Part shown: piece by piece, positions 10,946 to 45,553 of the stretch
How positions within the stretch are numbered: position 1 is the stretch's first letter
Layout: each line of letters opens with the position of its first letter
Source: Dictyostelium discoideum
Lineage: Eukaryota
Reading direction: 5' to 3'
DNA length: 64,000 bases
Assembly (NCBI GenBank): GCA_000004695.1
Contig: CM000154.2
Location: 1,184,001 to 1,248,000, forward strand
Translations under genes and position numbers: made by a program
The notes under the pieces: model-generated
Told to the model about the DNA's origin: nothing
What the model saw: the letters and a program-made list of their open reading frames with translations, nothing else
Database searches by the model: none

Positions 10946-13900
10946 TTAATCAGTAGTATCAGAGGCAGATTGGTAGAGTGGATTTTCAGCGGCAGATGCA
11001 GATTGTTCATAAAGTGGATTAGAGCTAACACCATCACCAAGGAAAGCGGCTTCACTAAAGAAAGTATCAGTTGGTGGTGCAGCTTTTCTTAATAATCTCC
11101 AAGCTGCGGCAGCAATTAAAGCAGTACCAGCGGCAGCACCAGCAATAGCACCTGTTAAAACGGTCTTATTGTCATTGGTTTGAGTGGTGGTTTCTGCTTC
11201 TTCAAATGTGACATCAACATAACCAGTTGCATTCATATGTGATTGAGCTCTAATGGCTGATGGTGCATTGTAACCTAAATCATCAACAAAGAGTTTAAGA
11301 CGATAGTTACCAGCAGTTACAGCATTGACAGTAATTGTTTGAATTGATTCATTGAGAGCAGATTTAGTATCGAGACATGAAATAGATGCAAGTGAAGTGT
11401 GGAGTTCACAATTTTGCATTCTTTTGAGTGAGATTTTAATATCTTCAAGTGATGCAACATTTTCATCATTTTCACCAACAATTGAAACTACAATTGAAAC
11501 ATTATTGCTTTTACCGGAATCTGGATCATCAAATTGAACATTTTCAACTGAAAGGGCTAACTTGGTAGTGGTGGAATAGGTTTTATTTCCGGCAAGAACA
11601 AATGGTGGAATGTTATATCTGTTAACGTTGATAACTGCTGTTAAGGTTGGTGAATCGAGACCACCATTATCTGTCATGAAAAATGGAATACGTACATAGC
11701 TATTACCAGATGAATCCGGGACAGGTGAATATACAACATAGTAATAGCCATCACTACTTTGCTCGACAGTTGTATGGTTACGATCAATAATAGAGCCTTT
11801 TAAGTCTGGTACAGTTTCATCTTTGGTATATAAAGTACCACGAAGTGCTGTGGTGACTGTTGAAAGTAATGGAGTGACTTGATCAACATCAACATCACTA
11901 CCAGTGTATTTGATTAAAACGGATGTATTGATATTCATATTGACAATATAGGTTGAGTCAAATAATACCTCACCATTATCTTTGGAAGTGTCATCTAAAA
12001 CCTTGTAACTAATTAATTGGATTGTTGGTGGTTGATTGACATGAATAACATTGACGGTGATAGTGTAAAGTTCAGAGTAAAGATCACCATCAAACAATTT
12101 GAATTCAATAAAATCGAAATCATTACCATATTCATTATGTGGTGGCATGTATGCAAAATTGTAAGAGGTTGAACCAGTTTGTGAATTTGGATAGGATGTA
12201 ATTTCTGTATCCATAGTACCTTCGCTACCCATGCTATGGGCAATTGATAAAGTACCTCTACCAGAGAATTTCAAAACTTGAATATTAACTTCAGAACCAC
12301 CATTTCCAACTTTACCTTGAACGTTTAATGGATAACGAGTGTTTTGTAAAACATCAATTACATCGGCTCCGGTGTAAACTGGTGGATTTCTTGGTCTGAC
12401 ACTAAAGGTAACTACGTCTGAATCTGATACAAGACCTTGTTGATCAACAACAGAGTATGGAATTGAATCTAATGGACCAATGTTATCAATGGTATTCCAA
12501 TTGGAAAGACCCGCATTTGGTTTGTATGAAAGAGCATCTAATTCGTAAGTTTCTTCACCAATTAATTTTGATGTAAGAACAACATTACCATTCAAAAGTT
12601 GACCATTGGCTGGGAGAGCATAAATCTTAGCTTTGAGGTCTGATGGCGATTCAATATCAGTACCATTGAATGTGAATGGTTCGGTTGTATCTTGATCGAG
12701 TTCAACTTGAATACCTTTTGTAGTTGGTGGAGTGTTAATATAGGTAAATTGGACAAAACCAGTTACATTACCAGTTGATAATACACCATATGGAGTGGTT
12801 AATTTAGAATCATCTTTACAGCTAATTATAAAGGAATCAGAGAAACTACTGAATGGAGTTGGTGAAATTTTAGATGCATCCAATAATTTGAAACTATAAC
12901 TATTGCTTGAGAGCGATTTTGGAAGGGTGGTAATTAATTCATTTTCTGAATCGTACATACTGATTTGCTTTGGAGCTGCTTGAACTGAACATAATACATT
13001 ATCACCATCAAAATCATAGGTAACCAATGTTTGAGTTTCACCAGCACCACTTTGAGATGTGAATGAGTAGGAATTGACTGTTAAAGTTGGTTTATGATTA
13101 ATTGGGTTAACAGTGACGGTTGTACTTTCAACTGATGACGTTTCTTTGAAAGTATCCATAACTTGATATGAATAACTATCAGTACCCTTGAAACCAGGAT
13201 TTGGTCTATAGTAATGAGTGAATGGTGCGTTTCCTTGAGTGGCAACGTTGTTACCATTTTGGACAGTAACTAAAATACCATTTGATGGTGGAGTGGTAAT
13301 AATAGCAATTAAATTATTAACATTTGGTGGATTGTAATCATCGATATCAGCATCGGTACCAGTTACAACATGTGCATCAGAATCTAAATAATCTTGATAA
13401 ACACTGTAATCTTGAATTTTAGTTACAACTGGTGCAACATTGGCACGATCTCCAACAATATTTACAACAACAGAGACAGTGTTTGATTCTAAACCTTCAT
13501 CATCAGTTGATGTGAATGAAATGGATGCATAATTTGAAATTGCGGAAGGTTCTCCATTGGTGAAACAAATAAGTTTATTGGCTTTTGTTGAAGAGTATGA
13601 GATACCAGAGAATTGATCTTTAAGAGAAATAATGGTGCTATCAGATGAACCAGAAGTACATGAACAATCATTAGTTGAACAGGTGTAGAAATTACCATTA
13701 TTACCATTTTTAATTGCAGTAATGGTGAATAATGCTTTTGTGGAATCTGAATCAGTTGATACCAAAGTTAATGAAACAGAACCTCTTGGAATTACTGAAA
13801 TTGGTGATGTTGATGATGAAACTGGTGCTACATTTGCATGTTGAATCTTGAAAGAAACTGAACAAGAAGCTTGTGAGAATGCATTTGATGTATCAATAGC

Positions 13901-16821
13901 TCTAAATTCTAATGTAACAGTGGCATCATTTTTTGGATTAACAGTTTGAGTGAAAATAACACTATCTCCAGTTGTAATTTTAGTTGATGAAGTAATAGAA
14001 GCACCTTTGTAAGTGAATGTACCGTAGGCAGTTAAATCAGTTGGTTTAGTAAATTGGAGGAATGGTGAGGCGTCTTCAAAATCAGTTGCAGTCATACTGA
14101 ATGTTGATTGGGTATTTAAGGTTGTTGTGATTGTTGATGAAATTGATGAACATTCTGGTAATTGATTTACTTTGTTGATGGTGATTGAAATTGTTGCATA
14201 GGTATTACTTTCGACACAACCATCAAAAGCAACAAATCTAATAGTATTTGAGGCTAAATAATTTTCGAACGGTGTATAGGTGAAAATTTCAGAGGCTGCA
14301 TAATAATTTGATTGTTGTTTTGAAACATCTTTACCATTGCTATCGGTAATAACACCAGCATTAGCTGTTAAGAATGTAGTGAATTTGAATTGTAAAATAT
14401 TTGCATCTGGATCAGTACCTGTTAATTTGAAAGTGGCTAATGAATTTTGATTGACAGAGAATGAACCTGAAGTTGCAACTGGTGGACGATTGTAATTGAT
14501 TGAAATATCAGTTTGACCATAACCCATTGCAGAAATTGTAGCAACTGGTGAAACAATTGTTGTACCTGATGGAAGTGATAATTTAAGACCATTGACAGTT
14601 TGTTGAGTTGATGAAGATGATGAAACTGTAACAGTTGATGGGACACTTGAAACAAATGAAGAACCAGTTGCAGTTGGATCAGATTTATAAACGATTTTGG
14701 ATAAAACATTCTTTACACCAGTATTAGCTTTAGCAGACCAATCACTAGCTGATGTTCCTGAAGCGGTAACAACACTACCAAAACCAGCTGAAGTGAGAGC
14801 TGAATTCCAATTAGTCATAGATGAGGCACCAAAACTAACGACCACTGGTACAATTGATTTTCCAATGAATTTATTTGTGAATGCAGTGATTTGTGCTGAA
14901 CTAGATGAATGATCACTATCGGTAATGATAACAATAACTTTGAATGAACCAGAATTCCAACCAACTGAAGCACTTGCAGCATCAGTAGCAGCCAAGAGTG
15001 AATTTCCATTAGAAGTGGTTGAATAAGTTGCTGGTTTATAAAGTCCAATGGCTGCAGCAATTGGACTACCCATAACTTGTGATGGACTAAATGAAATTGG
15101 TGATGGGGTGTAATCAGAGAAATAACCAATACCAAATTGAGCGGTTTCACAAATATTTTCAATGTTTGAAACAAATGTTGACATACCAGATTTAATATAA
15201 CCAAAGGCAGTAGTTGAAGCAAGATTGGCATCAACTAAAACGTAAACATCGAGATTATTAATTGGGTTTGGAATACTAACAATAGTTGGTACTTCATAGT
15301 TTGGTGTACTTGTGAGATAAACTTGAACTTTGGTTGGATTAACAAATGATGGATTACTGTATGAGATTGAGGTGTTGCTATTTGATAAATCTTTACAACT
15401 TTGAGATGATGAAATACTGCAATCGGCACCAGTCCAACCATTAGAACATAAACATTTACCATCACCATTAATACCACTATTTGGAACACCATTTACACAA
15501 GGTGGAACGGCAACACAATTTTCACCATAATAACCATCTTTACATTCAAAACATTTAGATGCTGGATCCCAATTATCAACACATTTACAAACACCACTCT
15601 CTGTATAACCACCATTACCACAATCTGGTTTAGCCACTAAAATTGTAAAAGAACGAACCGATGATGTTAAACCAGTTGAATCCGAGCAAACAAGAGAAAC
15701 AACATATGAACCGGTATTTGCAGTTGTTGGTGTCCATGTAATGGTTGTATTGGAGGTGGCACCTGTAACAGGAGTTTTGGTAGTGACACCAACTGGAAGA
15801 TTTGCAGTTTGAATGGTTGTTGATCTTCCAGACATAATAGTTTTACAAGAGAAAGTTAAACTTGTAGAGGCACCAATTGGGAATAATTTTGTATCACCAT
15901 CATCTGGAGTTGGTGGAGAGACAAAATCTGGTGGGTAATTACTAGTAGTACAAGTATCGATTGTGGTTGAACCACTGTTTGTGCAACCTTTACATTGAGA
16001 GTTTTGATTACATGCTGTACCAGCGTTTGAACATGTTGGATCACAAGTACCAGGTTCAGCAACTGATTGAAGAATGAAATCCACAACAATGTAGGCACCT
16101 CTTGAATCTAAAATATAAATTTGAGTTGAATAAAGACCAATTTGAGTTGGAAGGAAATAACAGTTACCTTTGGAATCAATTGTCATACCACTTGGTTGAG
16201 TCATTGTATAAACTTTTGAAAAGGAGAAAGTGAGTGCTGATGAGTCTGCATTTTGAACATTTTGATCGGATGCAATAACACGGAAGTTATTGTTTTTATT
16301 TGCAACTACTTGAACGATTGGAATCATACCAGATACTGGTGACCAATTTACCATTGACAATTCATTTTTATTATCGATTTGTACACTTGTTGTAATATTC
16401 CATGATGCATCTTTATTATTTAAAAGAGAACTAATTCTACAACAACTTGTGAAAATGGCGGTATATTCTCTAATTGTTCCAGAGTTTTGAGCTGGATAAG
16501 CTTTGGTTGTCGTGAAAGTACCTGTGAACCAATTATTTTTAACATCAAAATCTGTAACTGTAACAGAGACTGTTACTGATCCAACACCACTTCCAAAATT
16601 TAATGTACCAACATTAACTAAATTTCCAACCTTAATACTTGATGTTGATGAATAGAAAAAGGTTGTTCTATATGCAAAGTTTGATGTGAATTTGATGGTT
16701 CTATAATCTGTTGTTGGTTGCCAACTAATTGTACCAAAACGGAAATGTGATGCTTTGGAAAAAAAAAAATAATAAAAAAAAAATTTAAAATTAATATTTT
16801 TTTTTCACCTTTTCTGTTTAA

Positions 16822-16852
<31 letters not shown>

Positions 16853-16961
16853 TTTATTTGGGAAATAATAAAAAAAAAAAAAAAAAAAAACATTATTACT
16901 TACCATCAGTTAATATAAAAAGTGAAGCTATTAAAATAAATAGGTAAAATAATTTATTCAT
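10946..16961 (-). CDS. Sib-family (similar to integrin beta) adhesion receptor, paralog 1 (A/C-like), ~1955 aa. Exon 1 is 16961..16904 (signal peptide); intron 16903..16753; exon 2 is 16752..10946.
   Basis: Signal peptide MNKLFYLFILIASLFILTD. Cys-rich EGF-like repeats (CKCVDNWDPASKCFECKDGYYGENC...). A VWA-like region, then long Ig-like/cadherin-like repeats. A single TM helix (LTGAIAGAAAGTALIAAAAW). The cytoplasmic tail RLLRKAAPPTDTFF...NPLYEQSASAAENPLYQSASDTTD carries two NPxY motifs, as described for Dictyostelium Sib proteins (talin-binding, integrin-beta-like). Confidence 0.9.
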
Positions 16962-17314
16962 TTTGTTAAAAAATTTTATTAATTATTAATTTATTTATTT
17001 AATAAAGTTAAAATAAAATTTAAATTAAAAAAAATAAAAAAAATAAAAAAAATCCAGAAACTAAACCTGGCCAAAGAAATTTATTCTTTGTTTTTTAAAA
17101 ATACAGTGTGGTAATAATAAAATAGAAAATAGTATAAATGATTAAAAAAAACTTTTTTTTTTTTTTACTTTTTTTTTTTATTTTATTTTATTTTTTTTTT
17201 TTACTTTTTTCTATTTTATTTTATTTTATTTTTTTTTATTTTTTTTTATTTTTTTTTTTGAGTAACCATAAAAACGGATCTGTCAAATTTTTGTTAAAAA
17301 GTGTCAATTCGTTG

Positions 17315-17331
17315 GAAAAAAATCTAGATTT
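17315..17331. promoter_or_regulatory. Candidate cis-element GAAAAAAATCTAGATTT. It contains the perfect 12-bp palindrome AAATCTAGATTT and lies ~360 bp upstream of the paralog-1 ATG.
   Basis: The identical 17-mer recurs at 24890-24906, upstream of paralog 2. It sits inside a locally GC-richer island (17270-17350) in an otherwise >85% AT spacer. Confidence 0.35.
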
Positions 17332-17737
17332 CGTGAATATTTTAGATTTGCGCAAAAAAAAAATTGGTCCAAACAGTTTAAATTAATTTATTTTTTTTTT
17401 AATTTTTTTTTCATTTTTTTTTCATTTTTTTTTCATTTTTTTCATTTTTTTTTCATTTTTTTTTATTTTTTTCATTTTTTAAAAGATATTTTTTTTTTTT
17501 TTTTAAAAATAAAACACTTTGCCAAATGATGGGCGAAAATAAAAAATTTAAAATAAAAAAAAAAAAAAGGCTAAAATTGGATTGTGAATTTTGTGATATG
17601 GAACCATTTAAGTACTTTTTTGTGATATTTAACAACCTTTTACAAAAAAAAAAATAAAAAAAAAAATAAATATTAAAATAGTTTTAAATGAAGATAAAAG
17701 GGAATTTCATTGTTGTTATCAATTTTTTTTTTTTTTT

Positions 17738-17741
17738 AAAA

Positions 17742-17780
<39 letters not shown>

Positions 17781-17845
17781 ATATATAAATAAATAAATAA
17801 ATAAATAAATAGATAAATAAATAAATAAATAAATAAATAAAATTT
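17738..17845. repeat. (AAAT)n tetranucleotide microsatellite
   Basis: About 25 tandem AAAT units with a few interruptions, read directly from the sequence. Confidence 0.95.
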
Positions 17846-17886
17846 TTTTCAAAATAAATAAATTAAATAAAATAAATTAAAATTTG

Positions 17887-17960
<74 letters not shown>
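17887..17960. repeat. Poly(A) homopolymer, ~74 nt
   Basis: An uninterrupted A run in the spacer between sib paralogs 1 and 2. Confidence 0.95.
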
Positions 17961-17962
<2 letters not shown>

Positions 17963-18241
17963 AGGTCTGGTCAATTTCGCCTCATTCAATTCTTTGGAAT
18001 ATTTTTTTTTTTTTTTTATTTTTTTAAAATAATTTTAGTGTTTTTTTTACACTGTTATTATATTGATATTATAAATTATTATTTAAATAAATATAAATAT
18101 TTTATTATTATTATTTTATAATAATTAATATTTATTTAAATTAATTTATTAAATAAAAAATAAAAAATAAAAAATAAAATAATAATAATTTATTTTTTAA
18201 TTTATAAAATTATTTGTTTTTTTATTTATTTTTTTTTTTTT

Positions 18242-21200
18242 TTAATCATCGGCACCTTCATAAATTCTTGATACATATGATGTTTCAGATTTTTCGTAAA
18301 TTGGACTACTTGAAACATCACCCATAAAAGCACCTTCATCAAAGAAAGTATCAGTTGGTGGGGATGATCTTTTTATCATTTTCCATAAACCAATTACAAG
18401 TAATGCTGCACCAGCAGAAGCACCAGCAATTGCGCCTGATAAAACTGTTTTATTGTCGGTATTTTGGGTGGTAGCAATTGGGTCATTAATTATAATATTC
18501 ACATATCCAGTTGCATTTAAATGTGATTCAGCTCTAACTGTTGATGGTGCACTATAGCCCAAATCATCAATGAATAATTTTAGACGATATTTTCCACTAA
18601 TTGAACCAATGACTGAGATTGTTGATATTGATGCATTAAGAGATTTCTTTGATCCAATACATGTGATAAGGGCAAGATTTAGATTTGGGTTACATTTGGG
18701 AGTGGCTTGAGTAAAGGATAATTTAATAATGGAAAGTGGTAAAACTTCATCACCATCATTATCATCAACAATTGATACAATTAATGAAATATTATTATTA
18801 ACTGAATCTGGATCATCCAATGTTATATTTGTAATTGAAATGGTTAGATTAACTTTACCTACAAAAGTGTTTGAATTTGATCCAATGTAGATTTTTGGTT
18901 GAAGGTTAACAGAGTTTACATTTATAATTACAGTGGAAGTTTGTGACACAACTCCTTTTTCATCGATAACATTAAATGGAACACGAGCATAATTATCACC
19001 AGTTGTACCTTTAGTTGGTATGAAAATTACATACCAATAGCCATCTTCATTTAGTGGAATTAATTGAGATGTATGGTTGATTTCTCTTCCTAAATAGTCT
19101 GAGGAGTTATCATCAAATGAATAAATTAAACCACGAAGTGGAAGATTTGAAACTAAAGCAACTAAAGGGACTGTTTGGTTATCTATATCACTACCATAAA
19201 TTTTAATTAGTACAGAATCATTAACATTCATATTAATTGTTGAACCATCAATTTGAATTTCTTTTTCAAATTGATTTAAAATTCTATAACTTATTAATTC
19301 AGTGGCTGGTGGTTGATTCACATGAATAACATTAACTGTAATATTATAAATTTTAGAGATAATATCATTATCAAATAAAATAAATTGAATTTGATCAAAG
19401 TTTGAACCAAATTGATTTCTTGGTGGATTATATGCAAAATTGTAGGATGTTGAACCAAGTTGTTGGCTTGGGTACTCTGTTATTAGTTTATCAAAGAAAC
19501 CTTCTTTACCCATACTATGGGAAATTGATAAATTACCTCTACCACTGAAACTTAAAACTCGTATACTAACAGATAAACCGCCTCCACCAAGTTCTCCCTC
19601 AATTGTTAATGGGAAACGAGTATTTTGTAATACACTAATATCAGAGTCACCAAGGTAAATTGGTGGGTTTCTAGATCTAACTTGGAATGATATTGTTGAA
19701 GAAGGAGATAAAAGACCTTGTGGATCGACGATTGAGTATGAAATTCTATCCAATGGACCTAAATGATCCACTGTATCCCAATTTGATTGACCTGGTAAAG
19801 GTGTATATGTTAATTCATCCAAACCAAAAGTATTGTCTCCACCAATCAATTCTTTTGTCAAAACCACATTGCTATCAATGGATTTGGAAAGTTTACCATT
19901 GATTGGTAGAGAGTACAATAAAACTTTTAATAGCTTTTCATTGGATTCAATATCAGAACCTTCAAAAGAAAATGCAATGAATGAATCTTGTGAAAGTTTA
20001 ACTGAACTAATATTAGTTTTTGGTGGAGTGTTTATGTAATAGTATTGAACATTACCTATTACATCACCTGTTGACAATACACCTTTTGGTGTTGTTTTTT
20101 CACTATCATCAACACAGTTAATGCTAAAGGTACTTAAAACATTCGAAAATGGGGTTGGTGTAATGATTGAAGGGTCCAACAATTTAAAACTATAGGCATT
20201 ATTTGGTAACACCATTGGCACTGATTTTATTTGCACACCTTTGTCATCATACATAAGGATTTGTTTTGGAAGGGATATTACTGAGCAAATTACATTATCA
20301 CCATCTTGGTCACTGGTATTTAAAGTTTCTATAACCCCATCACCACTCTCTGATGTAAATTTATAAACATCAATCAAAACATTTGGTTTATGATTAATTG
20401 GTTTGATAGTAATAGTTGTAGATTCAATTGATGATTTTGCATTAAATGTGTCAATAACTTGATATGAATAACTATCAGTACCAGCGTACCCTGGATTTGG
20501 TCTATAATAATGAGTGAAAGGTGCATTTCCTTGAATGGCTATAGAACTACCATTTTGGACAGTAACTAAAATACCATTCGATGGTGGATTTGTAATTATA
20601 GCAATTAAATTATTAGCATTTTGTGGATTGTAATCATCGATATCAGCATCGGTACCAGTTACAACATGTGCATCAGAATCTAAATAATCTTGATAAACAC
20701 TGTAATCTTGAATTTTATTTACGACTGGCGCAACATTAGTACGATAACCAACAATATTAACTATTACAGTGGCCAAATTTGATTCTAAACCTTCATCATC
20801 AGTTGATGTGAATGATATGAATGCATAGTTTGGAACTGCAGAAGGTTCTGAATTGGTGAAACAAATTGGAAGACTGGCTTGATTTTTGGCGTATTGAATC
20901 TGTGAATACTTTGTATTGTCAGTAATATCGATACGATCATTTGATCCAGCAACACAAGAACAGCTATTATCAGTGCATGAATAGAATGTACCTGTTTTAC
21001 CAGCATTAACCTTTTTTATGGTAAATATAGCAGATTTTGAATCTATATCAGTTGATAATAAAGATAGGGGATTCCCGATACTTCTTGGAATAGTAACAGA
21101 TGTTCCATCATTTGAAATTGGTGCTTCATTCGTATGTGTAATATTAATAGTTTGGGTACATAAATTTGAAAATAAACCAGATGAATCTTTTGATTTGAAA

Positions 21201-24185
21201 GTCAAAGGAACTAAAAGATTTAATGGATTCTTTGTTTGTTTGAAAAGTATTTTCACACTCTTTTTAATTATTGTATCTATAGTTACTTTAGCACCAATAT
21301 ATGTTAGTTGTCCATATTGTTCTAAGGATGCTAGCTCTGAGCTCACAATAAACTGTGCATTAAGAATTAATAGTTGATCATCATCTTCAAAATCAGTAGC
21401 AGTAAATGAAAAATCAACCGTTTTTTCAAATTCAGATATAACAATAGCTGAACTACATTCAGGTGGTTGATTCACCTTATTGATAGAGAATGAAACTTTT
21501 GCACTTGAATCACTAGTTAAACAACCATCATCAGCAATAAAACTAATATACAATGATTTCAAATAGTTTTTATAAGGTGAAAATGTAAATTTTTCACTTC
21601 CTGCGTATAATTCATCCTTTTGAGTTGAAACATCAATACCTTTACTTGTTTTAATTAAACCTTCTGTACTCGATAAAAATGATGTAAATTTAAAGGTCAA
21701 AATATTTCTATCTGGATCAGAGCCTTCCAATTGAAATATAGCATCAGAGTTTTGATTACAAGAAATTCCAAATGGATTTGGTGTTGGTGGATGATTGTAG
21801 TTTGTTTTAATATCGATACAACCATATCCTATAGTACACACTCTAAGTGATGGATTTATACTACTATTGTAATTGATTGGTAAAGATAAAGAAAGACCAG
21901 ACAAAGTTTTGACAACTTCAATATCTGCATCTATAGGTAAATTTTCTGGAATTGATTTTAAAAATGCAAGACCACCAGAGTTATCATTAACTTTAAATAT
22001 AATATTCTGTAACACTCCATTACCTAATACTGAGCTTGATGTTTCTTTGAATGCTGTCTTTACAAAATTTTTCCAACCTTGAGCATCAGATGATAATTTA
22101 TAAGCTCCAAAACCACATTGATATAATGTTGAATTCCAATTACTTAGAGAAACATTAATTCCAATAACTACAGGAGCAATTGACTTTTCAATGAATGCAT
22201 TTTTAAATTCATCTATTTCTGTTTGGATGGGACTTAAAGGAAGATCTGTTCTTGGTATAATGATCATAGACTTAAAGGCATTCGTTCTCCAACCTAGTGG
22301 AGTCTTTGCTGCTTTGGTTGCAGCCGATAAAGATTTTCCTGTAATTGTATGATTATAGCCACTCCATTTTTTATTTTCTAGTGATGTTACAATAGAGTCT
22401 GATGGAATTTTAGCTAAATCAGCGAATAAACCATTTTCATCAATAATGCCCAACCCAAATGATACACTTTCAGGAGATAGTTCCAAAATTTTCGTTTTGG
22501 CGTCATTCAATTGAGATAGAATATTGTTGAATTCATTTTGAGTGTTTTGATTAATATCAATCAAAAAGTAAACATCAATTAATTTATTTTTCTCTGGAAT
22601 TTTAATATTGACTTGTATTTGATACTTTTGATTATTTGCCAAATATACTTGAATGCCTACTGGGTTAATATATGATTGCTCCATAATTGAAGAACTAACA
22701 ACACCACTTTTTAATGACCCACATGATTGACTGTTTGAAATTGAACAATCATCGCCAATCCAACCATTGTTACAATAGCATTTACCATCACCCAAAATTC
22801 CACTATTGGAAACACCATTGACACAAAGTGGCACAGCAATACACTTTTCTCCATAATATCCTTTTGAACAATCTAAACAATCACTTTCAGAGGTAAAATT
22901 CTTTGGACAAACACAAATACCTTTATCTCTAAATCCCCCATTTGAACAATCAGGTTTTTCTTTTAGAAAAAATTTAAAAATTAATAAAATTAAATTTATA
23001 AATAAAATAATTAAAAAAAGAAAACTTACTAATAATAATTTCTATTGAAGTTGTAATTTTTATCAAAGAGTCGGTACATACTATATATTTAACATATGTT
23101 CCATAATCTTGAAAAGATGTCGGGAACCATAATAAATTTATTGTTGATTTTGGTCCAATTTCTAAAATTTTTGTTATGAAACCAATTGGAAAACCGACAG
23201 GTTGAATAGTTGTGTTTAAACCAATTGCATCTGTTGTACAAGAAACATTAAAACCTTCATTTTGCTCACCAATAACAAATGTTTGTGTTTGATTGGGCTT
23301 TGGAGTTGGTGGGTAAATAAAAATAGGCTTTGTTGATAAACAAGCGTCTTGTGTTTTATTATATACTAAATTGCCACAATTAATACAGTCACTGTTTTTT
23401 GTACAAATTTCACCACTGTTATTGCACTGATGATGACAAAACCCATTTTGTATCTCTGATTGGAGGATAAAGTCAAGAGTTATATACGCACCATTTTTAT
23501 CTGTAATTATTACCTTTGCGCAATATAAACCAACAGATGATGGCATGAAATATACCATACCAGTGTTTTTATCAAGTGTCATCCCATCAGGCTTTGCTTC
23601 GCCAAATGTAAACACAAGATTAGAATACTCTCCAGGTCTGAGATGTTGATCAGAGGCAGGGATATTGAAATTATTATTTCTACCATATGTTACTGGATAG
23701 ATAGGTACCATTCCTGATACTGGTGACCAATTAATTTTATCAAGTGAATTACTATTATCAATTTGTACCAATGATTTTATTGTAAAATCACCATCTTTTT
23801 CATTCAAAAGAGTACTGATTCTACAGCACAACGAATAGAAGGCAGTATAGTTAGCAGTTTTTCCTACTTCCAATGTTGGGTATGTGTGGGAAAATACTGA
23901 AGTGCCAGTAAACCAATCATCTTTAGAGTCAACCGTTGTTAGTATTAATTGATAAGTACTCACAACATTATCTCCAAAATTGAAAGAAATTTTTATAAAA
24001 TCATTTTTTTGGGGCAAATTGGAGAACCAGGCACTGGTTCTGAAGCCAAGGTCAAGAGTAAATTGTATTTCATTGTATTGAGTAGTTGGTTGCCATTTAA
24101 ATGTACCAAACCTAATATGAGAAGCTTTTATTATTAAAAAAATTATAATAATATAAGAATTTTTGTTTTTTTTTTTTGATTTTTA

Positions 24186-24231
<46 letters not shown>

Positions 24232-24299
24232 ATTTTACCGTTTGAGAAAGTTATCAAAAAATAAATAAAAAATAATAATTTTACAACAAAACTAAACAT
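18242..24299 (-). CDS. Sib-family adhesion receptor, paralog 2 (divergent), ~1958 aa. Three exons: 24299..24239 (signal peptide), 24124..23030, 22959..18242.
   Basis: Signal peptide [20 protein letters not shown], phase-1 GTAAAA donor. Exon 2 begins [15 protein letters not shown]..., parallel to the other paralogs. There is an extra 70-nt intron (GTAAGT...AAAAG) inside the EGF-like region. Same overall architecture as paralog 1 (EGF-like, VWA-like, repeats, [21 protein letters not shown]). The tail reads ...[21 protein letters not shown]; both NPxY motifs are replaced by SPIY and SRIY. Confidence 0.85.
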
Positions 24300-24666
24300 T
24301 TTTTAATAAAAAGTAATAAAATAAAAGATTTTGTTTTTTAAAATCTTTATTTCTTTTTTATTAAAAATTTTTTTTTTTTTTTTTAACTATTATTAGTTTT
24401 TAATTTATTTGTTTGTTTTTTATTTTTTTATTGTATTATTAAAACTTGATATTAAGAAAAATGAAAATTTTAAAAAAAAAATTTAATAAATTAAAATTAA
24501 TACAATTTATTTATTTTAATTCATTTATTTTAATTTTTTTTTTTTTTTTTTAAAAAACTAGATATTTTATCAATCCAAAATAAAGAAACTTTGAATTCTT
24601 TTTATTATAATTATATTCTATCCAATTACTCTTTGTTAGTTTAATTTAATTTTAAACATTAAAAAC

Positions 24667-24765
24667 AATCCAGCCAACCAAATTTTTAAGTAAAAAAAAA
24701 AAAAAAAAAAAATATTTTCCAATTTTTTTTTCAAAATATCCATTTTTTTTTGAGGTTGGCTGGAT
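24667..24765. repeat. Inverted repeat ATCCAGCCAACC (24667-24678) and GGTTGGCTGGAT (24754-24765), flanking a ~75-bp A/T spacer. It could form a hairpin or be a MITE-like terminal inverted repeat.
   Basis: 12/12 reverse-complement match read directly from the sequence. Such GC content is unusual in this intergenic DNA. Confidence 0.6.
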
Positions 24766-24889
24766 ATAAAAATTTAATTAAAGTGGTGAGAAGTGATTTT
24801 ATGCGGTGTTGGCCACTTTTTTTATTTTCCACGAGTTTCAAAGAAAAAAAAAAAATAAAAATGAGCCGCGTAGAAAATGGTTTTAGTTG

Positions 24890-24906
24890 AAAAAAATCTA
24901 GATTTT
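24890..24906. promoter_or_regulatory. Second copy of GAAAAAAATCTAGATTT (palindrome AAATCTAGATTT), ~595 bp upstream of the paralog-2 ATG.
   Basis: Exact 17/17 match to 17315-17331. Neighbouring short GC-richer motifs include AAATGAGCCGCGT at 24860-24872. Confidence 0.35.
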
Positions 24907-25104
24907 AGAATTTTTTTTTAAATACAGACTTAATTAAATTTAGTTTGAAATAATTTTTTCTATTCTTTGATATTTCAAAAGTGAATTGAAATATACAAAA
25001 ATAAATAAAAATAGAAAAAGAGTAACAAAGTGACTTTTTTTTTAGTTTTTTTTTTTTTTTGATTAAATTAATTTAAGTATTTAATTGTCTTAAAATGAGT
25101 TTGC

Positions 25105-25156
<52 letters not shown>

Positions 25157-25764
25157 ATAATAATAATAATAATAAATTCCCTATCCGACTAATGGAATCT
25201 GATTTATTTTTTATTTTTTTTTTATTTTTTTTTTTTAAGTATACTATAACCCTTTAATGAAAAACAAACAAATATTTTTTTTTTTTATATTAAAAATGAT
25301 TTTTTTTTTTTTTTTTTTTATTTATGATATATAAAAACAGAAATACCCAAAGTGATAAAATATAAAAAAAATTTATTAATCCTTTCTGTTTTTTTAATTT
25401 TTTTTTTTTTCAAATTTTATTTTCGAGGAACATATAAAAAAAAAATCTGAAAGATTACTAAGAGAATCTGATTTATTTTTGATTTTTTTTCGTCGAAATG
25501 AGCGGCGTGTTTATACTAAATCAAAAGAAAAAATGGAAATTTTTTTTTTTTTAAAACTCAATTTTTACCTTCCAAAAAATGAAATAATAATAATAATAAA
25601 ATCTAAACAATCTTTCATATTTTTTAATCAAAAACTAAAAAAAAAATAAAATTTAACACCATATTGAGGGAATCAATTTTAAAAAAAAAAGTTTGAGATG
25701 AATGAAATTATTAAATTTTATTAAAAAAAAGATTTAATTATTGAGAAATATTTAATAAGAAACT

Positions 25765-28700
25765 TTAGTCAGTATTATCAGAGGCAGATTGATAAAGTGG
25801 ATTTTCAGCGGCAGATGCAGATTGTTCGTAAAGTGGATTGGCATTAACACCGTCACCAAGGAAAGCGGCTTCACTAAAGAAAGTATCAGTTGGTGGTGCA
25901 GCTTTTCTTAATAATTTCCAAGCAGCAGCAGCAATTAAAGCAGTACCAGCGGCAGCACCAGCAATAGCACCTGTTAAAACAGTCTTATTATTAGTGGTTT
26001 GTGTGGTAGCTTCTGGTGCATTAACTTTAACATCAACATAACCAGTTGCATTTAAATGTGATTGAGCTCTAATGGCTGATGGTGCATTGTAACCTAAATC
26101 ATCAACAAAGAGTTTAAGACGATAGTCACCAGCAGTTGATGCGATAACAGAAATTGAAACAATTGAACTGTTGAGTGGTTTCTTTGGTCCAATACATGTG
26201 ATTGAAGCTAAAGTTTGATGATATTCACACATTGGTGATTGAGTGAATGAAAGTTTAATATCTTTGAGTGATGCAACTTTGTCATCTTTTTGACCAACTA
26301 TTGAAACAACAATTGAAACATTGTTAGTTGTAGAATCTGGATCATCAAATTGTACACCCATTACAGAGGCAGTTAAATTGGTTTGAGTTGTGTAGTTTTT
26401 GTTACCAATGATTACAAATGGTGCAATATTGACAGTATTAACATTGATTAACACTCCGACGATTGGTGAATTAAGACCGCCATTGTCAGTCATAATAAAT
26501 GTAATACGTGCATAACTTTCACCAGAGGTTTTTTTTGATGGTACAAATACGACATAGTAAAAACCATCAGCATTTTGTTCAACATTTGAAGAGTTACGAG
26601 TGATTGGCGCACCTGATGAATTTGAAGCAGTTGGATTATAAGCGTAAAGCGAACCTCGAAGTGGGAAATTTGGAATCATTGAAATTAATGGAGTAACTTG
26701 ATCAACATCAATATCATTACCAGAATATTTAATTAGGACAGTGGTATTAATATTCATATTAATTAATGAAGTATTTTCAAATAAGACTTCACTTGAAACG
26801 CCATCTAAAATCTTGTAACTAACTAATTCGATTGTTGGTGGTTGGTTGACATGAATAACATTAACAGTGACTGTATAAAGTTCAGAGTAAAGATCACCAT
26901 CAAAGAGTTTGAAGTAAATGAAATCAAAATCATTACCATATTTATTACGTGGTGGCATGTATGCATAGTTGTATGAAGTTGAACCAGATTGTTGATTTGG
27001 ATATGATGTAATTTCTGAATCCATAGTACCTTCGCTACCCATATTGTGAGCGATACTTAAAGTACCATTGTTAGTGAATCCAATAACTTGGATATTAACT
27101 TCAGAACCACCACCACCAATTCTACTAGTGATAGTTAATGGATAACGAGTGTTTTGTAAAACATCAATTACTCTTGCACCAGTATAAACTGGTGGATTTC
27201 TTGGTCTAACACTAAAGTAAACGATATCAGAATCTGATGTAAGACCTTGTTGATCAATGACAGTGTATGAAATTGAATCGAGTGGACTTTGTTGATCAAT
27301 GGTATTCCAATTTGAAAGACCTGCATTTGGTTTGTATGAAAGTGCATTAAGGTTGTATGTTTCAGAAGCAATATTTGTTGTAGTAAGAGCAACACCAGTA
27401 GCGTTAATTAAAAGTTGACCATTGATTGGTAATGAAAGGATTTTAACTTTAATATCATCTTTTGGTGTTTCAATATCAGAACCATTAAAAGTGAATACTT
27501 TGACTGTATCTTGATCAAGTTGAACAGTGCCACCTTGAGTAGTTGGTGGAGTATTAATATAAGTATATTGAACATTAGCAGTTACTACACCAGTTGATAA
27601 TGTACCAAATGGAATAGTCTTTGTAGTAACATCAGTACATTTGACAGCGAATGAACTTGAAACACTTGTGAATGGAGTTGGAGTAATTTTTGATGGATCT
27701 AATAACTTGAAACTGTATGAAGTACCAGAGAGAACAGTTGGAACTGATTCAATTAAATTACCATCTGAATCATACATACCAATTTGACTTGGAATGGAAA
27801 CAACTGAACAAATAACACTATCACCATCTGGATCACTGGTGACCAAGTCTTGAGTTTCACCATCACCACTTTGAGATGTGAAAGAATATGAACTGACAAC
27901 AACACTTGGCTTGTGATTAATTGGGTTAACAGTGACGGTGGTACTTTCAATTGATGACCCAGCTTTGAAAGTGTCAACAACTTGATATGAATAACTATCA
28001 GTACCCTTGAAACCAGGATTTGGTCTATAGTAATGAGTGAATGGAGCTTTTCCTTGAGTGGCAGCAATGCTACCATTTTGAAGAGTAACTAAAATACCAT
28101 TGGATGGTGGAGTGGTAATTATAGCAATTAAATTATTAACATTTGGTGGATTGTAATCATCGATATCAGCATCGGTACCAGTTACAACATGTGCATCAGA
28201 ATCTAAATAATCTTGATAAACACTGTAACCTTGAATTTTAGTTACAACTGGTGCAACATTAGTACGATTACCAACAATATTAACGACTACATTGACAGAA
28301 TCTGATTCTAAACCTTGGTTATCAGTTGATGTGAATGAAATGGATGCATAATTTGAAATTGCGGAAGGTTCTCCATTGGTGAAACAAATAAGTTTGTTGG
28401 CTACTTTGTTGGTATAAGAAATTGATGTGTAGGTTGTAGTTGTAGAAATAGAGGTATATATGTTGGTTTGAGTAGAATTACATGTACAATCATTGGTTGA
28501 ACAAGTGTAGAAATCACCCTTTGCGCCCTTGTTAACGGATTTAATGGTGAATTTTGCAGATGTTGAATCTGAATCAGTTGATACCAAAGTTAATGAAACA
28601 GAACCTCTTGGAATTACTGAAATTGGTGATGTTGATGATGAAACTGGTTTAATATTTGTATGAACAAGTTTAACAGTTAATGTACAAGTACTTGTAGAGA

Positions 28701-31502
28701 TTGCACCAACACTATCGACAGCTTGGAATGATACTGGAACATCAATAGCATTGGTTGGATTAACGGTTTGGGTAAATGTGATTTCAGAACTAGTTGGAAT
28801 TTTAGATGTTGAAGTAACAGCAACACCACCAAAAGTTAATGTACCATATGCAGTTAAATCGGTTGGACTAGTGAATTGAATGAATGGTGTGGCATCTTCA
28901 AAATCGGAAGCACTCAATACAAATTTGTTAGCAACATTCAAAGTTGGTGAAATTGTTTTTTGTTGACAAGTTGGTAATTGATTGACTTTGTTGATGGTGA
29001 TTGAAACGGTTGCAGATGTAGTACTATTAAGACAACCATCATTGGCAACGAAACTAACACTGATTGGTAATAAATAGTTAATGGCTGGAGTGAAGGTGAA
29101 AGTCTCGGTTGAATCGTAATATTTACTTTTTTGGGTTGAAACATCTTTATTATTACTATCGGTAATAACACCAACGTCACTTGTTAAGAAGGTAGTGAAA
29201 GCAAAGGTTAAAATATTGAAATCTGGATCAGTACCTGTTAATTTAAAGGTAGCAAATGAATTTTGATTTACAGAGAATGCAGTTCCGGTTGGAGTTGGTG
29301 GACGATTGTAATTGATTGAAAAATCAGTTTGGCCAAAACCAATTGCTGAAACTGATGCAACTGGTGATACGATTGAGGTTGCTGATGGTTTGGTTAAAAC
29401 AAGACCACTAACGGTTTTAACGGTATCAGCGGTGGAAGATACAGCGACATCTGATGGTGTGGATTTAACGAATGAAGCGCCATTGGTTGTATTATCGGTT
29501 TTATAAACAACATTTGATAAAACACTCTTTAAACCAGCTACAGCTTTAGCAGAGATATCGATGGATGTAGCAGCAGAGACAGTGCTATAACCAAAATCAG
29601 CGGTTGAAATTGCTGAATTCCAATTTGGAATTGATGAGGCACCAAAACCAACAACAACTGGCGCAATTGAATTTGAAATGTAAGTATTGACGAAATTAGT
29701 TATAGCAGCAGAGTTTGAAGAATGATCTTTATCGGTAAGTACAACAATTGCTTTAAAGGAGCCAGAGTTCCAACCATTTGAGTTTGATGCAGCATTTGTT
29801 GCACCCAAAAGTGAATTACCACTTGAGGTTGAAGTATAAGATGAGACAGCATAACCATTGATAGTATTAACGATATTGCTACCAATGATTGAACCTGGAG
29901 CAAAATTGAAACCAGATGAAGAGGCATCACTGAAATAACCAATACCAAATTGAGTTGTTTCGCAAATACTCTTTGAAACCTCAGTGACAAATGTTGAAAT
30001 ACTTGATTGAACAACACCAAAGAGAGTTGATGAGGCGACATTGACATCGACTAAAACGAAAACGTCAATTTTTGTTAATTTTTGTGGAATGTTTAATGAT
30101 GTAGTTAAAGCGAAATCACTTTCGATATATAGTTGAACTTTGGTTGGATTGACAAAGAATGATGGAACAGAGGTGGAGAGGAGAATAGAATTTTTCAAAT
30201 CTTTACAACTTTGAGATAATGGAACATCACATTTATCACCACTGTAACCATTGATACACATACATTTACCATCACCTAAAATACCTTCATTTGGAATACC
30301 TTTATCGCATGGTGGGGTTGGATCACAATTTTGACCATAATAACCGGTACTACAATCGAAACAATTTGAAGTTGGATCCCATTTATCACCATCACATTTA
30401 CATTTACCAGTTGAAGGATCTTTATGACCATTACCACATTCTGGTTTAGCAATGAAAATTGTAAATGAACGAGATGATGATGTTAAACCATTTGAATCAT
30501 AACAAAAGATTGAAGTTACATAAACACCAACATTTGCAGCGACTGGAGTCCATGAAAGAATATTTTTAACTGTACCTTGACTTGAAGTTCCTTCTGCAAT
30601 GGCTGCACCAGCTGGTACATTAGCAGCTTGGATACCGACAGTTCTAGTTGTATAATCTGATTTACATGAGAGTGTGATACTATTTGGTTGACCAACAGTG
30701 AATGGAATTAATTGATTATCTTGTGGGGTTGGTGAAACAAAGTATGGTGGATAATTAGTTGTTGAACAAGTATTGCTAGTTGTTGAACCAGCGTTGGCAC
30801 AATTTTTACATTCTGAATTACCATTACATGTTGCACCACCATTGGAACAACTTGGATCACATTTACCTGGTTCAGTAATTGATTCTAAAATGAAATCGAC
30901 TACGGCATATGCTGGTGGAACGGCATCATCTGTGATATAAATTTGAGTAGAATAAAGACCAACTGAAGTTGGTAAGAAAAAAACATGACCAGTACTATTG
31001 ATTTTCATTCCAGATGGTTGGGTCATTGGATAAACGGTTGAGAAAGAGAATGAAAGTTTATCATCAACATTTGGGTCACTTGCAATAACACGGAAGTTAT
31101 TATTTTTGTTGGCAATAACTTGGACAATTGGTAACATACCTGATACTGGTGAATGATTTACTGATGGCCAATTTTTGTTATCAAGATAAACACTACTAGT
31201 AATGTTCCAATCAGCATCTTTATTATTGAGAAGTGTACTAATTCTACAACATGATGTAAACATGGCAAGATATTGTTTTGAGTTGTTTGGAGTTAAGGCA
31301 GTATAGGTTTTAGTAAAGATAAATTGACCAAAGAACCAATCATTCTTGGTATCAAAACTGGTCACAGATGCCCTAACTGATGTAGATGAACCATCACCAA
31401 AAGTTAAAGTACCAAGAGTAATTTTTTCTCCAATTACAATTGATGATGAGCTTGTTTTATAAAATGTAGTTCTAAATGCGAAATTTGTTGTAAATTTAAT
31501 AA

Positions 31503-31551
<49 letters not shown>

Positions 31552-31999
31552 AAAAAGAAAAAATTAGTAATTGAATAAAATAAATAAATAATAAGTTACT
31601 TACGTTATGTGCTGTTGTGGGACTCCATGAGATACTACCAAATCTGAAATGGGTGGCTAAAATAAAAAATTAAAAAAAAAAAAAAAATTGAAAAATAAAT
31701 AAAAAAAATGAAAATCGAAAAAAGGTCAGAAAAGTTTTAAAAAGTAATCGATTTTTAGTATTATTATTTTTATATTATTATTATTATTTATTAATATTTA
31801 TTATTATTATTTATTTATTATTTATGTATCTATCCATTTATTTTATTTATTTATTTTAATTTTATTATTTTATTATTATTATTATTTTTATTGTTATTTT
31901 AGTTTTTAATTTTTATTTTAATTTTTAATTTTAGATCTTACCTTCAGTGACACAAAATATTGCAAGTAATACAAATAAAAATTTGAATAAATTATTCAT
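25765..31999 (-). CDS. Sib-family adhesion receptor, paralog 3 (A/C-like), ~1903 aa. Three exons: 31999..31942 (signal peptide), 31655..31603, 31503..25765.
   Basis: Signal peptide MNNLFKFLFVLLAIFCVTE (GTAAGA donor). Mini-exon ATHFRFGSISWSPTTAHN. A 99-nt phase-0 intron (31602..31504) contains a 43-nt homopolymer. The tail ...NPLYEQSASAAENPLYQSASDNTD is about 93% identical at nucleotide level to paralog 1's tail. TM helix LTGAIAGAAAGTALIAAAAW. Confidence 0.9.
31506..31548. repeat. Poly(T) run of 43 nt (poly-A on the coding strand) inside the paralog-3 intron
   Basis: Read directly from the sequence. Confidence 0.95.
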
Positions 32000-32029
32000 T
32001 TTATTACTTTAAATAGAAATCGATTTTTC

Positions 32030-32078
<49 letters not shown>

Positions 32079-32266
32079 ATAGACAGGAAAATTAATTTTT
32101 TAAATTTTTTATTTCTTAAAAAAAAAAAAATAAAATAAAAAAATAAAATGAATTTACAAAGAATTAATCTTTGTGTGTAAAAATACAATGGAAAATGAAA
32201 ATGATTAAAAATAATTTTTTTTTTTTTTTTTGATTTAGTAACTATTGTTTAAATTTTTTATAAAAA

Positions 32267-32298
<32 letters not shown>

Positions 32299-32627
32299 TT
32301 TAAAGATATTTTTGAAGAAAAAAAAAACTTAAAAATAAAAAAAAAAATTGTCTCATGTGAAATCGTTAATCAAATCGACGATTATGTTTTTAATCATTTG
32401 ATTTCTTTTTTTTTGAGGCCCAAAAAAAAAAAAATTTTTAATAAAAAATTGGAGGTTTTTTTTTTTTGCCGTTAGATTTTTTTTTATATTTTTTTTATTT
32501 TTTTTTTATTTTTTATTTTTTTTTAGCTTTTGTAAACAGTGTTAAATTTCCAATAAAAAGTAAAATTTTAAAAAAAAAACCCAAATTAAATAAAAAAATT
32601 ACCCAATATCCTTTTGCGTGAATAATT

Positions 32628-32659
<32 letters not shown>

Positions 32660-33315
32660 CATTTATTTATTATTTTTTAAAAATAGAGTTTGCAAATGAA
32701 CATCAAAATATTTTATTAATTTGGCACCTCTGTTAGATGCAAATATTAAAATATTAATATAAAATTACACTTGTTGAGAAAATAAAATGACTGAAAAAAA
32801 TTGTTAATTGTTTTATTTTTTTGATTATTGCTTTTTATTAGTTTTATTTTTTTTTTTTTCTTTATTTTTTTTTATTTTTCTTTTCTTTTTTTTTTTTTTA
32901 TTTTTAAAAATTTAGAATTTCAGATCACACAAAAAAAAAAAAATTTTAAAAAAAAAAAATTTAACGTGCCCCAATCAAATAAAATTTTTCCGATTTCTTT
33001 TTTATTTTTTTCTTTTTTTATTTTTTTTTTTTTAAAGAATATTATTATTTCTTTTTCTTTTTTTTTAAAAATAAATAAAAAGGGGGAGTTTTTTTATTTA
33101 GGAATTAAAAAAAAAATATAATTAAATTTTTGGTTTACCATAATTTTTTTTTTTCCCAAATTTAACAAAAAATAGAAAATTTTTTTAAAAGTCCAATTAA
33201 AAAAAAAAAAAAAAAATTGAAAAAAAAAAAAAAAAAAAAAATTGAAAAAAAAAAATTTGTTTAAAAAAAAAAAAAAAAAAAAAAAAATGATACACACCCA
33301 TGAAATGTTCTATCA

Positions 33316-33417
33316 ATGGAACCTTTCAGCTATGAAATAGAAGGATTCAAAAAATCGGATAAAGATTTACCCTTAGAAATTAGTTGCAATGAAGAAGAAA
33401 ATGAATATAAAATGAAA

Positions 33418-33481
<64 letters not shown>

Positions 33482-33758
33482 GTAATAGTAATAATAGTAG
33501 TAATATTAATAATAGCAACTTTAATAAAATTTTCTTAATGAAATGGGTGATTGTTGTAAATATAATATCTCCATTCACAATATTTTATCTTTATCTCCTA
33601 TATTTTGATTCAATAAATAGTGAAGCAATTAAATCTGAAATGGAGTTTAATTTAATCATTCATATTTATAGATCAATGTGGTCACTGGTATTATTATTAT
33701 TTTTATCATCGTATGTATTATTTAATATAATAATATCATAAATTGGTTTATTTACTGA

Positions 33759-33804
<46 letters not shown>

Positions 33805-34210
33805 TAAAATTTATATATATGGGATAAATTTAATATAAAATACTTTTCAATTTTTAAATTTAAAGATTTTTTAAAAAATCCACCCCTTCCAAATCCAAAT
33901 CCAAATATAAATATAAATATAAATGCGATATCAACAGATGAAGGACCAATTATATTTAATATTTTATTTAAAAAATCAATTGCTTTACTTTTTATTTTAT
34001 CAGTATCAGTTTTAGCTTCAATTTTAAATCAAAGTTACAATAATAAAATAATTTCAATATTTATATGGACTTGCTTTTTTATTACACTATTTTATAATAG
34101 ATTTATTAGATTATTAGTTACTGAAAATATTATTTTAATTTTAAAAGCACCATTTAAATCAATTACATTTTTATCGTATGTATTATCAACTCTAATTTTT
34201 AAAGAAAATC

Positions 34211-34302
<92 letters not shown>

Positions 34303-35101
34303 TTAATAATAATAATAATAATATTTATTTATTTAGGTTTTGGATTGCAGATCAAATTACAAGTTTATCAATATTTTTAAAAGATTTCAATATGTCATTA
34401 TGTTTTTTAATATCATTTTTTAACATTGAATATTGCAGTAAACAATTTGAATGGTTGTCAATAATAATACCAATATTACCATTTTCATTCCGAATTAATC
34501 AATGTCTTCGAGTTTATTATGATAATAATGAAAACAAATCACAATTATTCAATGCATTAAAATATTTTATGGGTTTGGTTGTTTTATTCTTTTCAAATCT
34601 TTATCATAATAAGGATAATGGCGAAGTTTATAAAATTTATTGGATTTCATTTGCAATGATTAGTACAATTTTTTCAACCTATTGGGATATTGTAAAAGAT
34701 TGGGGTTTATTTTCAAAAAGTTCAAAAAATTATTTATTAAGAGATCAATTATTATTTATTTATAAACCTGTAAATATTTTATTATTATTAATATTATTAA
34801 AAATATTTTTTAAAAATTAATATGCATATTAATATTTTAAACATCTTTTTTTTTTTTTTTTTTTATAAAAAAGTTTTATTATCACTCAATAATTTCAAAT
34901 ATAATTATGAGATTTACATGGGTTATATTAATAAATCCATCATATTTTGGGTTTAAATCAAGTAATGAAATTTTAATTGGTATATTTTTAGTGTCAATTG
35001 ATATTGTTAGGCGTTGTCAATGGAATTTTTTAAGGTTAGAATATGAAGTAATTCAATCAAGTTTTAAAAATTTTAAACAAATAAATATTGAAGAAATATA
35101 A
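33316..35101 (+). CDS. EXS-domain (Erd1/Xpr1/Syg1 family) multi-pass membrane protein. Confident exons: 33316..33710, 34337..34769, 34874..35101. A further exon-like segment ends at 34175 (about 33874..34175) whose inclusion is unresolved.
   Basis: C-terminal EXS signatures STYWDIVKDWGLF and RRCQWNFLRLEYEV (compare the family consensus WD..MDWGL and RR..WN.FRLENEH). Junctions: GTAAAT donor at 34770 to AG at 34872-73, phase 0. GTATGT donor at 34176 to TATTTATTTATTTAG acceptor at 34336, phase 2, through an (ATA)n-rich intron. Exon 1 ends with an identical phase-2 TC|GTATGTATTA donor at 33711. Confidence 0.65.

Positions 35102-35205: not shown

Positions 35206-45553
<10,348 letters not shown>

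Follow-up and report, generated by a model that had tools for sequence, protein, structure and literature searches.

The closest described relatives of the genes considered here are the Sib proteins, the chief receptors by which Dictyostelium adheres to substrates and particles. According to two papers (PMC9197732, PMC3279395), the cytosolic domain, conserved in all five Sib proteins, binds talin A (citing Cornillon et al. 2006, 2008), and the membrane-proximal NPxY motif of SibA is needed for this binding. The same papers describe SibA and SibC as the abundant vegetative forms, the loss of either of which lowers adhesion, and the sibA/sibC double mutant as not obtainable. Glycines of the SibA transmembrane (TM) segment make surface delivery dependent on Phg1A (TM9), as was also found for a csA-SibC chimera (PMC4510845, PMC3279395), and SibA has been treated as one receptor through which talin bears force (PMC12686525). 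The present analysis concerns a window of 64,000 nucleotides (nt) from the Dictyostelium discoideum AX4 reference (assembly GCA_000004695.1, contig CM000154.2, positions 1,184,001 to 1,248,000 of the forward strand), in which reading of the open reading frames (ORFs) and hand-built gene models place a minus-strand triplet of long, intact reading frames at 10946–31999 (positions within the window). This triplet is almost certainly the sibC-sibD-sibE tandem array of the reference, with sibE a hybrid of two genes, E and X, relative to an ancestral array of four genes.

SibA (Q54KF7), the founding and best-studied Sib, shares with the array genes the domain order, the length (~1930 amino acids, aa), a GxxxGxxxG core in the TM segment, a PPTD.FF box in the membrane-proximal tail and two NPxY motifs. 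It differs from them in sequence, with 39% identity to SibC and ~37–38% to the third protein of the array, and in location, its gene lying on the same chromosome but outside the array (locus tag ACTFIT_000100, versus 000473–476 for the array). Metazoan integrin beta chains resemble Sib proteins in being type I proteins with a vWA-type domain, Cys-rich EGF-like modules and NPxY-talin binding that links substrate to actin (PMC9197732, PMC12686525), but Sib proteins are about twice as long, carry bacterial-type Ig/cadherin repeats and have no known alpha partner. Bacterial surface proteins, such as a Cytophaga type IX secretion system (T9SS) protein (P0037) and a JGI protein (P0052), share with Sib the Big_9 and Cadherin_4 repeats and a SIBA-E_N-like region (PF24907); such proteins are nevertheless only ~31–32% identical over 20–35% of the query, have a T9SS sorting signal, and lack vWA_SIBA-E and the eukaryotic TM segment and tail. 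Finally, the tgrB/tgrC locus is also a tandem set of surface receptors in which local recombination generates copy number changes and mosaics that only long reads resolve (PMC12745789). The Sib array differs from it in its stable gene order across species and in being under purifying selection rather than hypervariable.

Evidence for a fourth gene comes from other assemblies. Trees built on split genes, together with a homology search using the third copy of the array, revealed in other D. discoideum assemblies an odd protein, here called X, that groups with the SibC clade over its N-terminal half and resembles SibE over its C-terminal half. By cluster look-up and locus retrieval, the gene order is a divergent EXS-domain gene followed by E, X, D and C in 4 genomes, for which the four-gene loci were retrieved: GCA_054883475.1 (ACTFIT), GCA_054859385.1 (ACTFIR), GCA_054859355.1 (ACTFIW) and D. 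firmibasis GCA_036169595.1. All four gene types also occur in D. cf. discoideum ACTFIY, under the consecutive locus tags 002249–002252, and X adjoins E in D. dimigraforme. The X entries (KAM9947153.1, with locus tag ACTFIT_000475; KAM9969648.1; KAM9958728.1; KAM9996060.1; and RB653_008435 of D. firmibasis) are annotated in these genomes solely as 'hypothetical protein', and among the papers that could be searched none mentions a sixth sib gene or a name such as sibF for X. The source of the ACTFI assemblies is Holland et al. 2025, where AX2-214 and wild isolates were sequenced by Nanopore plus Illumina (PMC12745789). ACTFIT very probably represents AX2-214, the sole laboratory strain of that project, its SibA, SibB and SibC being identical to those of AX4; it is referred to below as AX2.

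The two parts of X have different affinities. Its C-terminal ~960 aa are 96–100% identical to SibE, while its head is ~78% identical to SibC overall, with patches at 95–100%, versus ~57% to SibE. The ancestral array would have comprised four genes in the order E-X-D-C, and D. discoideum may possess, between sibE and sibD, an unnamed sixth Sib gene whose head resembles SibC and whose stalk and tail resemble SibE, and which AX2 and wild isolates carry and the AX4 reference lacks. We put this forward tentatively, at just under an even chance. The earlier worry about this locus had been that the window held too many genes; the other assemblies, with four genes there, point the other way. That X is instead a false duplication in long-read assemblies, three genes being the true number everywhere, is extremely improbable: haplotigs or repeats can be duplicated in Nanopore assemblies, but X is found in at least 4 independently assembled genomes of the D. 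discoideum clade as well as in D. firmibasis and D. dimigraforme, its 5' half is unique (~78% to SibC, ~57% to SibE) and could not be created by a duplication error, and it is under purifying selection (omega 0.13–0.33).

Comparison of the window with the AX2 locus reveals where the two arrangements part. Between 34551 and 27250, the window has no coding difference from the AX2 E region save one nucleotide in the 31250–31499 bin, which matches the only residue that differs, aa 81. Between 27749 and 15703, it has no coding difference from the 3' part of AX2 X, the following spacer, sibD and sibC. The third copy is thus identical to AX2 E up to aa 1458 and to AX2 X from aa 1240 onward, its 3' ~710 codons being those of X. 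Within the near-identical block of E and X (28648–25765), 14/14 informative sites at 27900–28573 are E-type; so is every listed site upstream of 28573. By contrast, 49/49 informative sites at 27240–25771 are X-type, as is the 3' flank. The single switch from E to X therefore falls within a stretch of 659 nt over which AX2 sibE does not differ from X, and the SibE proteins of AX4 and AX2 differ at 21 residues between aa 1459 and 1786. Since the window is E-type above this stretch and X-type below it, some 7.3 kb, namely the 3' end of sibE, the spacer and the first ~two-thirds of X, are evidently missing, and the annotated AX4 SibE is, as judged from these sites, an in-frame E/X hybrid relative to the four-gene array. 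A recombination or a mis-join in the shared block would have removed the ~7.3 kb and left one in-frame hybrid, the 'sibE' of AX4.

Real loss and assembly collapse are both plausible. A genuine ~7.3-kb deletion in AX4 or its AX3 parent, arising when the near-identical 3' halves of sibE and X underwent unequal homologous recombination, has an even chance of being correct; the three-gene array and the hybrid sibE would then be real in AX4, and the Sib repertoires of AX4 and AX2 would differ. It accounts for the single, clean switch between E and X variants, which are not interspersed, and for a hybrid that is intact and in frame. Moreover, none of 29 family matches is an orphan AX4 protein fragment similar to the X head, although leftover contigs of the 2005 Sanger assembly may have been thrown out. 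Duplications are known to distinguish laboratory stocks of D. discoideum, according to work cited in PMC12745789, but the tgrBC loci of AX4 and AX2 are reported there to be 99.5% identical and without rearrangements.

Alternatively, with a probability that falls somewhat short of even, the AX4 reference collapsed the array, E reads having been joined to X reads across the 659-nt identical stretch and ~7.3 kb dropped, so that SibE would be an artefactual chimera. The join lies inside the longest identical stretch, about the length of one Sanger read, of a ~98% identical 2.9-kb block, which is a classic setting for a mis-join, and the sister laboratory strain has four genes with otherwise identical coding sequence. 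A collapsed repeat usually yields a mosaic consensus, however, whereas here all 14 sites upstream within the block and all 49 downstream are of one type, and no product of an orphan contig was found in the protein collection.

Whichever holds, the AX4 reference, on which most Dictyostelium mapping relies, would lack one Sib gene and carry a hybrid 'sibE'. RNA-seq, proteomics, CRISPR guide design and the reading of sibE knock-outs based on AX4 would then mis-assign or miss X in AX2-background strains and possibly in AX4. X would also bear on attempts to remove Sib redundancy, such as the reported failure of sibA/sibC double knock-outs. Should AX4 truly lack X, the adhesion-receptor sets of the two laboratory strains in commonest use would differ, and AX4 would express a hybrid receptor present in no other strain.

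The identity of E and X at their 3' ends is itself a property of the locus in several species. In every genome examined, the two proteins are 43–66% identical over the first ~990 aa, then 95–100% identical to the C-terminus. The transition is abrupt, ~2850 nt before the stop codon in D. discoideum isolates and ~3000 nt in D. firmibasis, so that the 5' boundary of the tract agrees within ~150 nt between the two species; at the other end, the tract reaches no further than the stop codon, the 3' flanks being only 50–63% identical. Over the last 2850 nt, E and X of one genome are 97.6–98.0% identical, versus ~80% for orthologues of D. discoideum and D. firmibasis. Likewise, synonymous divergence (dS) between the tails of E and X is 0.047 in AX2 and 0.044 in D. 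firmibasis, versus 0.51 between species, a pattern that argues for concerted evolution by recurrent gene conversion. Such conversion, as these comparisons indicate, homogenises E and X and is confined to the stalk, TM segment and tail. It would thus be by repeated conversion that X shares its last ~2.9 kb with sibE, and as part of the same tentative sixth-gene proposal this homogenisation would predate the split of D. discoideum and D. firmibasis, deletion or collapse alike. Omega is 0.13–0.49 in all comparisons, a sign of purifying selection on all four genes, X included, all of which therefore look functional. The locus would then be a clean case of domain-restricted concerted evolution, in which stalk, TM segment and talin-binding tail are kept identical between the two paralogues and the putative ligand-binding heads diverge, at ~55–65% identity.

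Other exchanges may have occurred in the array. Set against SibC, the X head of the AX2 locus (gene X at L002 10001–16085) is mosaic: most windows of 100 aa are 68–88% identical, and alignment columns 200–300 and 800–1000 reach 95–100%, which suggests recent patchy conversion between the X head and sibC, across the intervening sibD. Within the window, 83–108 nt are identical in exact pairwise comparisons among sibC 13302–13409, sibD 20623–20717 and sibE 28121–28228, whereas the paralogues are ~70% identical elsewhere; the corresponding protein region is 70–90% conserved in the C/D/X/E clade and 35–51% towards SibA/B. This points to a micro-conversion tract or to an unusually constrained element. 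The loci of the wild isolates (L001, L003) differ from the window at 15174–34856 by ~4–6% in DNA, and their synonymous divergence is 0.054–0.10 for sibD, sibE and X versus a species-wide mean nucleotide diversity of 0.003 (bioRxiv 10.1101/2025.10.22.684067), an excess that may not be locus-specific, the isolates compared being tropical and picked for divergence.

As for the three genes of the window, a first-pass annotation had predicted consecutive minus-strand proteins of ~1900–2000 aa that belong to the Sib family, and its gene coordinates match the hand-built models exactly (Table 1). Five Sib-specific Pfam families (SIBA-E_N, Ig_SIBA-E_2nd, Ig_SIBA-E_3rd, vWA_SIBA-E and Ig_SibA), which had themselves been built on SibA-E, occur in order in 3/3 proteins with scores of 46.8–372 bits against gathering cut-offs of 27–28.1; EGF_TEN, Cadherin_4 and Big_9 give weaker matches. 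By exact-sequence look-up, copy 1 is SibC (Q54JA5, XP_636831.1) and copy 2 is SibD (Q54JA4, DDB_G0288197, XP_636832.1) of D. discoideum AX4, and copy 3, for which no exact-sequence entry exists, equals AX4 SibE (Q54JA3, XP_636833.1) except at aa 17–37; the RefSeq numbers of the three proteins are consecutive. The family assignment thus holds, and a best match outside the Sib family is excluded. The same annotation had allowed that the copies might be an assembly artefact of one or two genes. This was rejected: the copies are just 70–73% identical in DNA and are therefore old paralogues rather than one gene duplicated by an assembler. The lengths of all three coding sequences are divisible by 3, with no internal stops; the introns are GT...AG throughout and 70–285 nt long, the second one of sibD, just upstream of the EGF-like region, being 70 nt; and a first exon of 58–61 nt codes in each copy for a hydrophobic, signal-like N-terminus.

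The discrepancy in SibE concerns its 53-nt exon 2 (31604–31656). At aa 17–37, the public AX4 model reads PPISDLVVSHGV..PQQHIT, which appears to be this exon taken in another frame. The hand-built model reads VTEATHFRFGSISWSPTTAHN there, concurs with the newer annotation KAM9947154.1 and restores the motif [AS][ST]HFRFG.ISW.PTT common to SibA-D (THFRFGSISWSPTT); the predicted splice joins exon 31656–31604 to 31942 and 31503 and gives ...TEATHFRFGSISWSPTTAHN.... The three genes are already known, named and catalogued, and their confirmation itself adds little. What the analysis adds is this corrected 5' model for sibE, the putative sixth gene missing from the reference together with the hybrid sibE, a defined E/X conversion tract across species, and the loss of the last NPxY motif of SibD in the laboratory lineage, described below.

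The architecture claimed for the three proteins (signal exon, EGF-like and VWA-like regions, repeats, one TM segment, short tail) holds for 3/3 copies. Each has EGF-like Cys-rich segments, a vWA-like domain, Ig/cadherin-like repeats, one TM segment and a ~50-aa tail. Type I topology was read from the sequence, without a dedicated predictor, from a hydrophobic N-terminus followed by a conserved [AS][ST]H[FI]RFG motif. The single TM segment consists of 21 Gly/Ala-rich aa around a GxxxGxxxG core, and NKT and basic residues flank it. It had also been proposed that the outer copies are closer to each other than to the middle one and that they end in two NPLY motifs, and both points are borne out: protein identity is 65.4% between copies 1 and 3, 48.6% between 1 and 2, and 48.0% between 2 and 3, and two NPxY motifs, both NPLY, are present in the tails of SibC and SibE and absent from that of SibD, where the corresponding positions are occupied by SPIY and SRIY. 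At the proximal position of SibD, the window and the AX2-like assembly have SPIY (codon AGT); NPIY (AAT) is kept by two wild isolates, ACTFIR and ACTFIW, and by D. cf. discoideum and D. firmibasis. The distal motif is S[RK]IY in all genomes compared. The laboratory lineage has thus lost the sole remaining NPxY of SibD. A pseudogene status for sibD was considered and rejected: its ORF is intact, its introns are canonical and omega is 0.20–0.38 against orthologues.

The TM segments differ in their number of glycines, with 3 in SibC and SibE (GxxxGxxxG), 4 in SibD and 5 in SibA. These counts conflict with an earlier study, in which the five SibA glycines are said to be conserved from SibB to SibE (PMC4510845). 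In that study, dependence on Phg1A rose with the number of TM glycines, to which the differing counts may be relevant.

A mechanism can be drawn from the literature on SibA and SibC, its steps being inferred for SibD and SibE. Each gene would encode a ~1950-aa type I adhesion receptor whose N-terminal domain, Ig-like, EGF-like and vWA-like domains and Ig/cadherin-like repeats would contact substrates and particles. The Gly-rich TM helix would be recognised by TM9/Phg1A so that the receptor is exported to the cell surface, and the short, conserved tail would recruit talin, with myosin VII, via its membrane-proximal NPxY, thereby coupling the receptor to actin. For SibC, this mode of action can be assumed with confidence.

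The name 'integrin-beta-like' is the published name of the family and a functional analogy; it does not demonstrate membership of the integrin beta family. True orthology with metazoan integrin beta chains is very unlikely. The vWA-like domain, EGF-like repeats, single Gly-rich TM segment and NPxY motifs would fit it, but in copies 1–3 the Integrin_beta Pfam family gave no match at E<=0.01 or E<=0.001, and the match to the generic VWA family PF00092 (22.4 bits) lies under the 23.8 cut-off. The canonical DxSxS of the metal-ion-dependent adhesion site (MIDAS) was not found at the position set by aligning PF00092 (alignment start, aa 521): this position reads DANLAS in SibC, DINQNT in SibD, DVNVAS in SibE and DSQPS in SibA. 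The ectodomain, moreover, is mostly made of Ig/cadherin-like repeats also found in bacterial proteins, and a review states that Dictyostelium lacks integrins (PMC9197732). The array adjoins an EXS-domain gene and a Roco-type kinase gene, neither of them alpha-like.

Returning to the reading of the locus as an array of talin-coupled adhesion receptors with a fourth member in AX2, several points weigh against it. The equation of ACTFIT with AX2-214 is a deduction, not taken from a record. SibD lacks an intact NPxY in the laboratory lineage, and its coupling to talin may be weakened. The vWA-like domains are devoid of the canonical DxSxS metal site and may bind ligands differently from integrins. 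The function presumed for SibD and SibE follows from family membership.

Table 1. Features of the sib array, with positions in the window unless the AX2-like locus is named
Feature	Position	Strand	Details	Source
sibC (copy 1)	10946..16961	-	exons 16961-16904, 16752-10946; 1954 aa; 151-nt intron	hand-built gene model
sibD (copy 2)	18242..24299	-	exons 24299-24239, 24124-23030, 22959-18242; 1957 aa	hand-built gene model
sibE as in AX4 reference (copy 3)	25765..31999	-	exons 31999-31942, 31656-31604, 31503-25765; 1949 aa	hand-built model
Predicted crossover interval	27241..27899	-	659 nt, aa 1239-1458; AX2 sibE = X throughout; single E-to-X switch inside	
Putative concerted-evolution tract	25765..28648	-	aa ~989 to stop codon; membrane-proximal repeats, Ig_SibA domain, TM segment, tail	
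X-specific 5' 3 kb	L002 10001-13150			AX2-like locus
E-X spacer	L002 8771-10000			AX2-like locus
vWA-like domain, SibC	14492..15349	-	aa 488-773; PF24909 E = 2.7e-111	
vWA-like domain, SibD	21797-22675	-	PF24909 E = 5.3e-41	
vWA-like domain, SibE	29308-30159	-	PF24909 E = 3e-104	
Gly/Ala-rich TM segment, SibC	11099..11161	-	VLTGAIAGAAAGTALIAAAAW	
Gly/Ala-rich TM segment, SibD	18383-18445	-		
Gly/Ala-rich TM segment, SibE	25918-25980	-		
NPLY pair, SibC tail	10973..11020	-	motifs 11009-11020, 10973-10984	
NPLY pair, SibE tail	25792-25839	-	motifs 25828-25839, 25792-25803	
Degenerate motifs, SibD tail	18260..18307	-	SPIY 18296-18307, SRIY 18260-18271	

The window as a whole is strongly AT-rich, with a GC content of 13–17% in intergenic versus 30–37% in coding DNA, and a scan for transfer RNA genes across it found none. 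The EXS-domain (PF03124) gene, at ~33300–34860 on the plus strand and divergent from sibE, is the upstream neighbour in 4/4 retrieved loci, that of D. firmibasis included, and serves as an anchor of synteny. Beyond it, a 2953-aa ORF at 35231–44092 on the minus strand encodes a Roco-type kinase, with a myotubularin-like phosphatase domain, leucine-rich repeats and a protein kinase domain, that is unrelated to the Sib array and that we take to resemble pats1/roco2. Further along, a 1334-aa ORF at 57193–61197 on the plus strand has Ge1_WD40 and EDC4_C domains and resembles enhancer of mRNA decapping 4. Finally, at 59–61 kb the GC skew is -0.43 to -0.48 and the AT skew is positive, a signal that probably reflects a low-complexity coding repeat.

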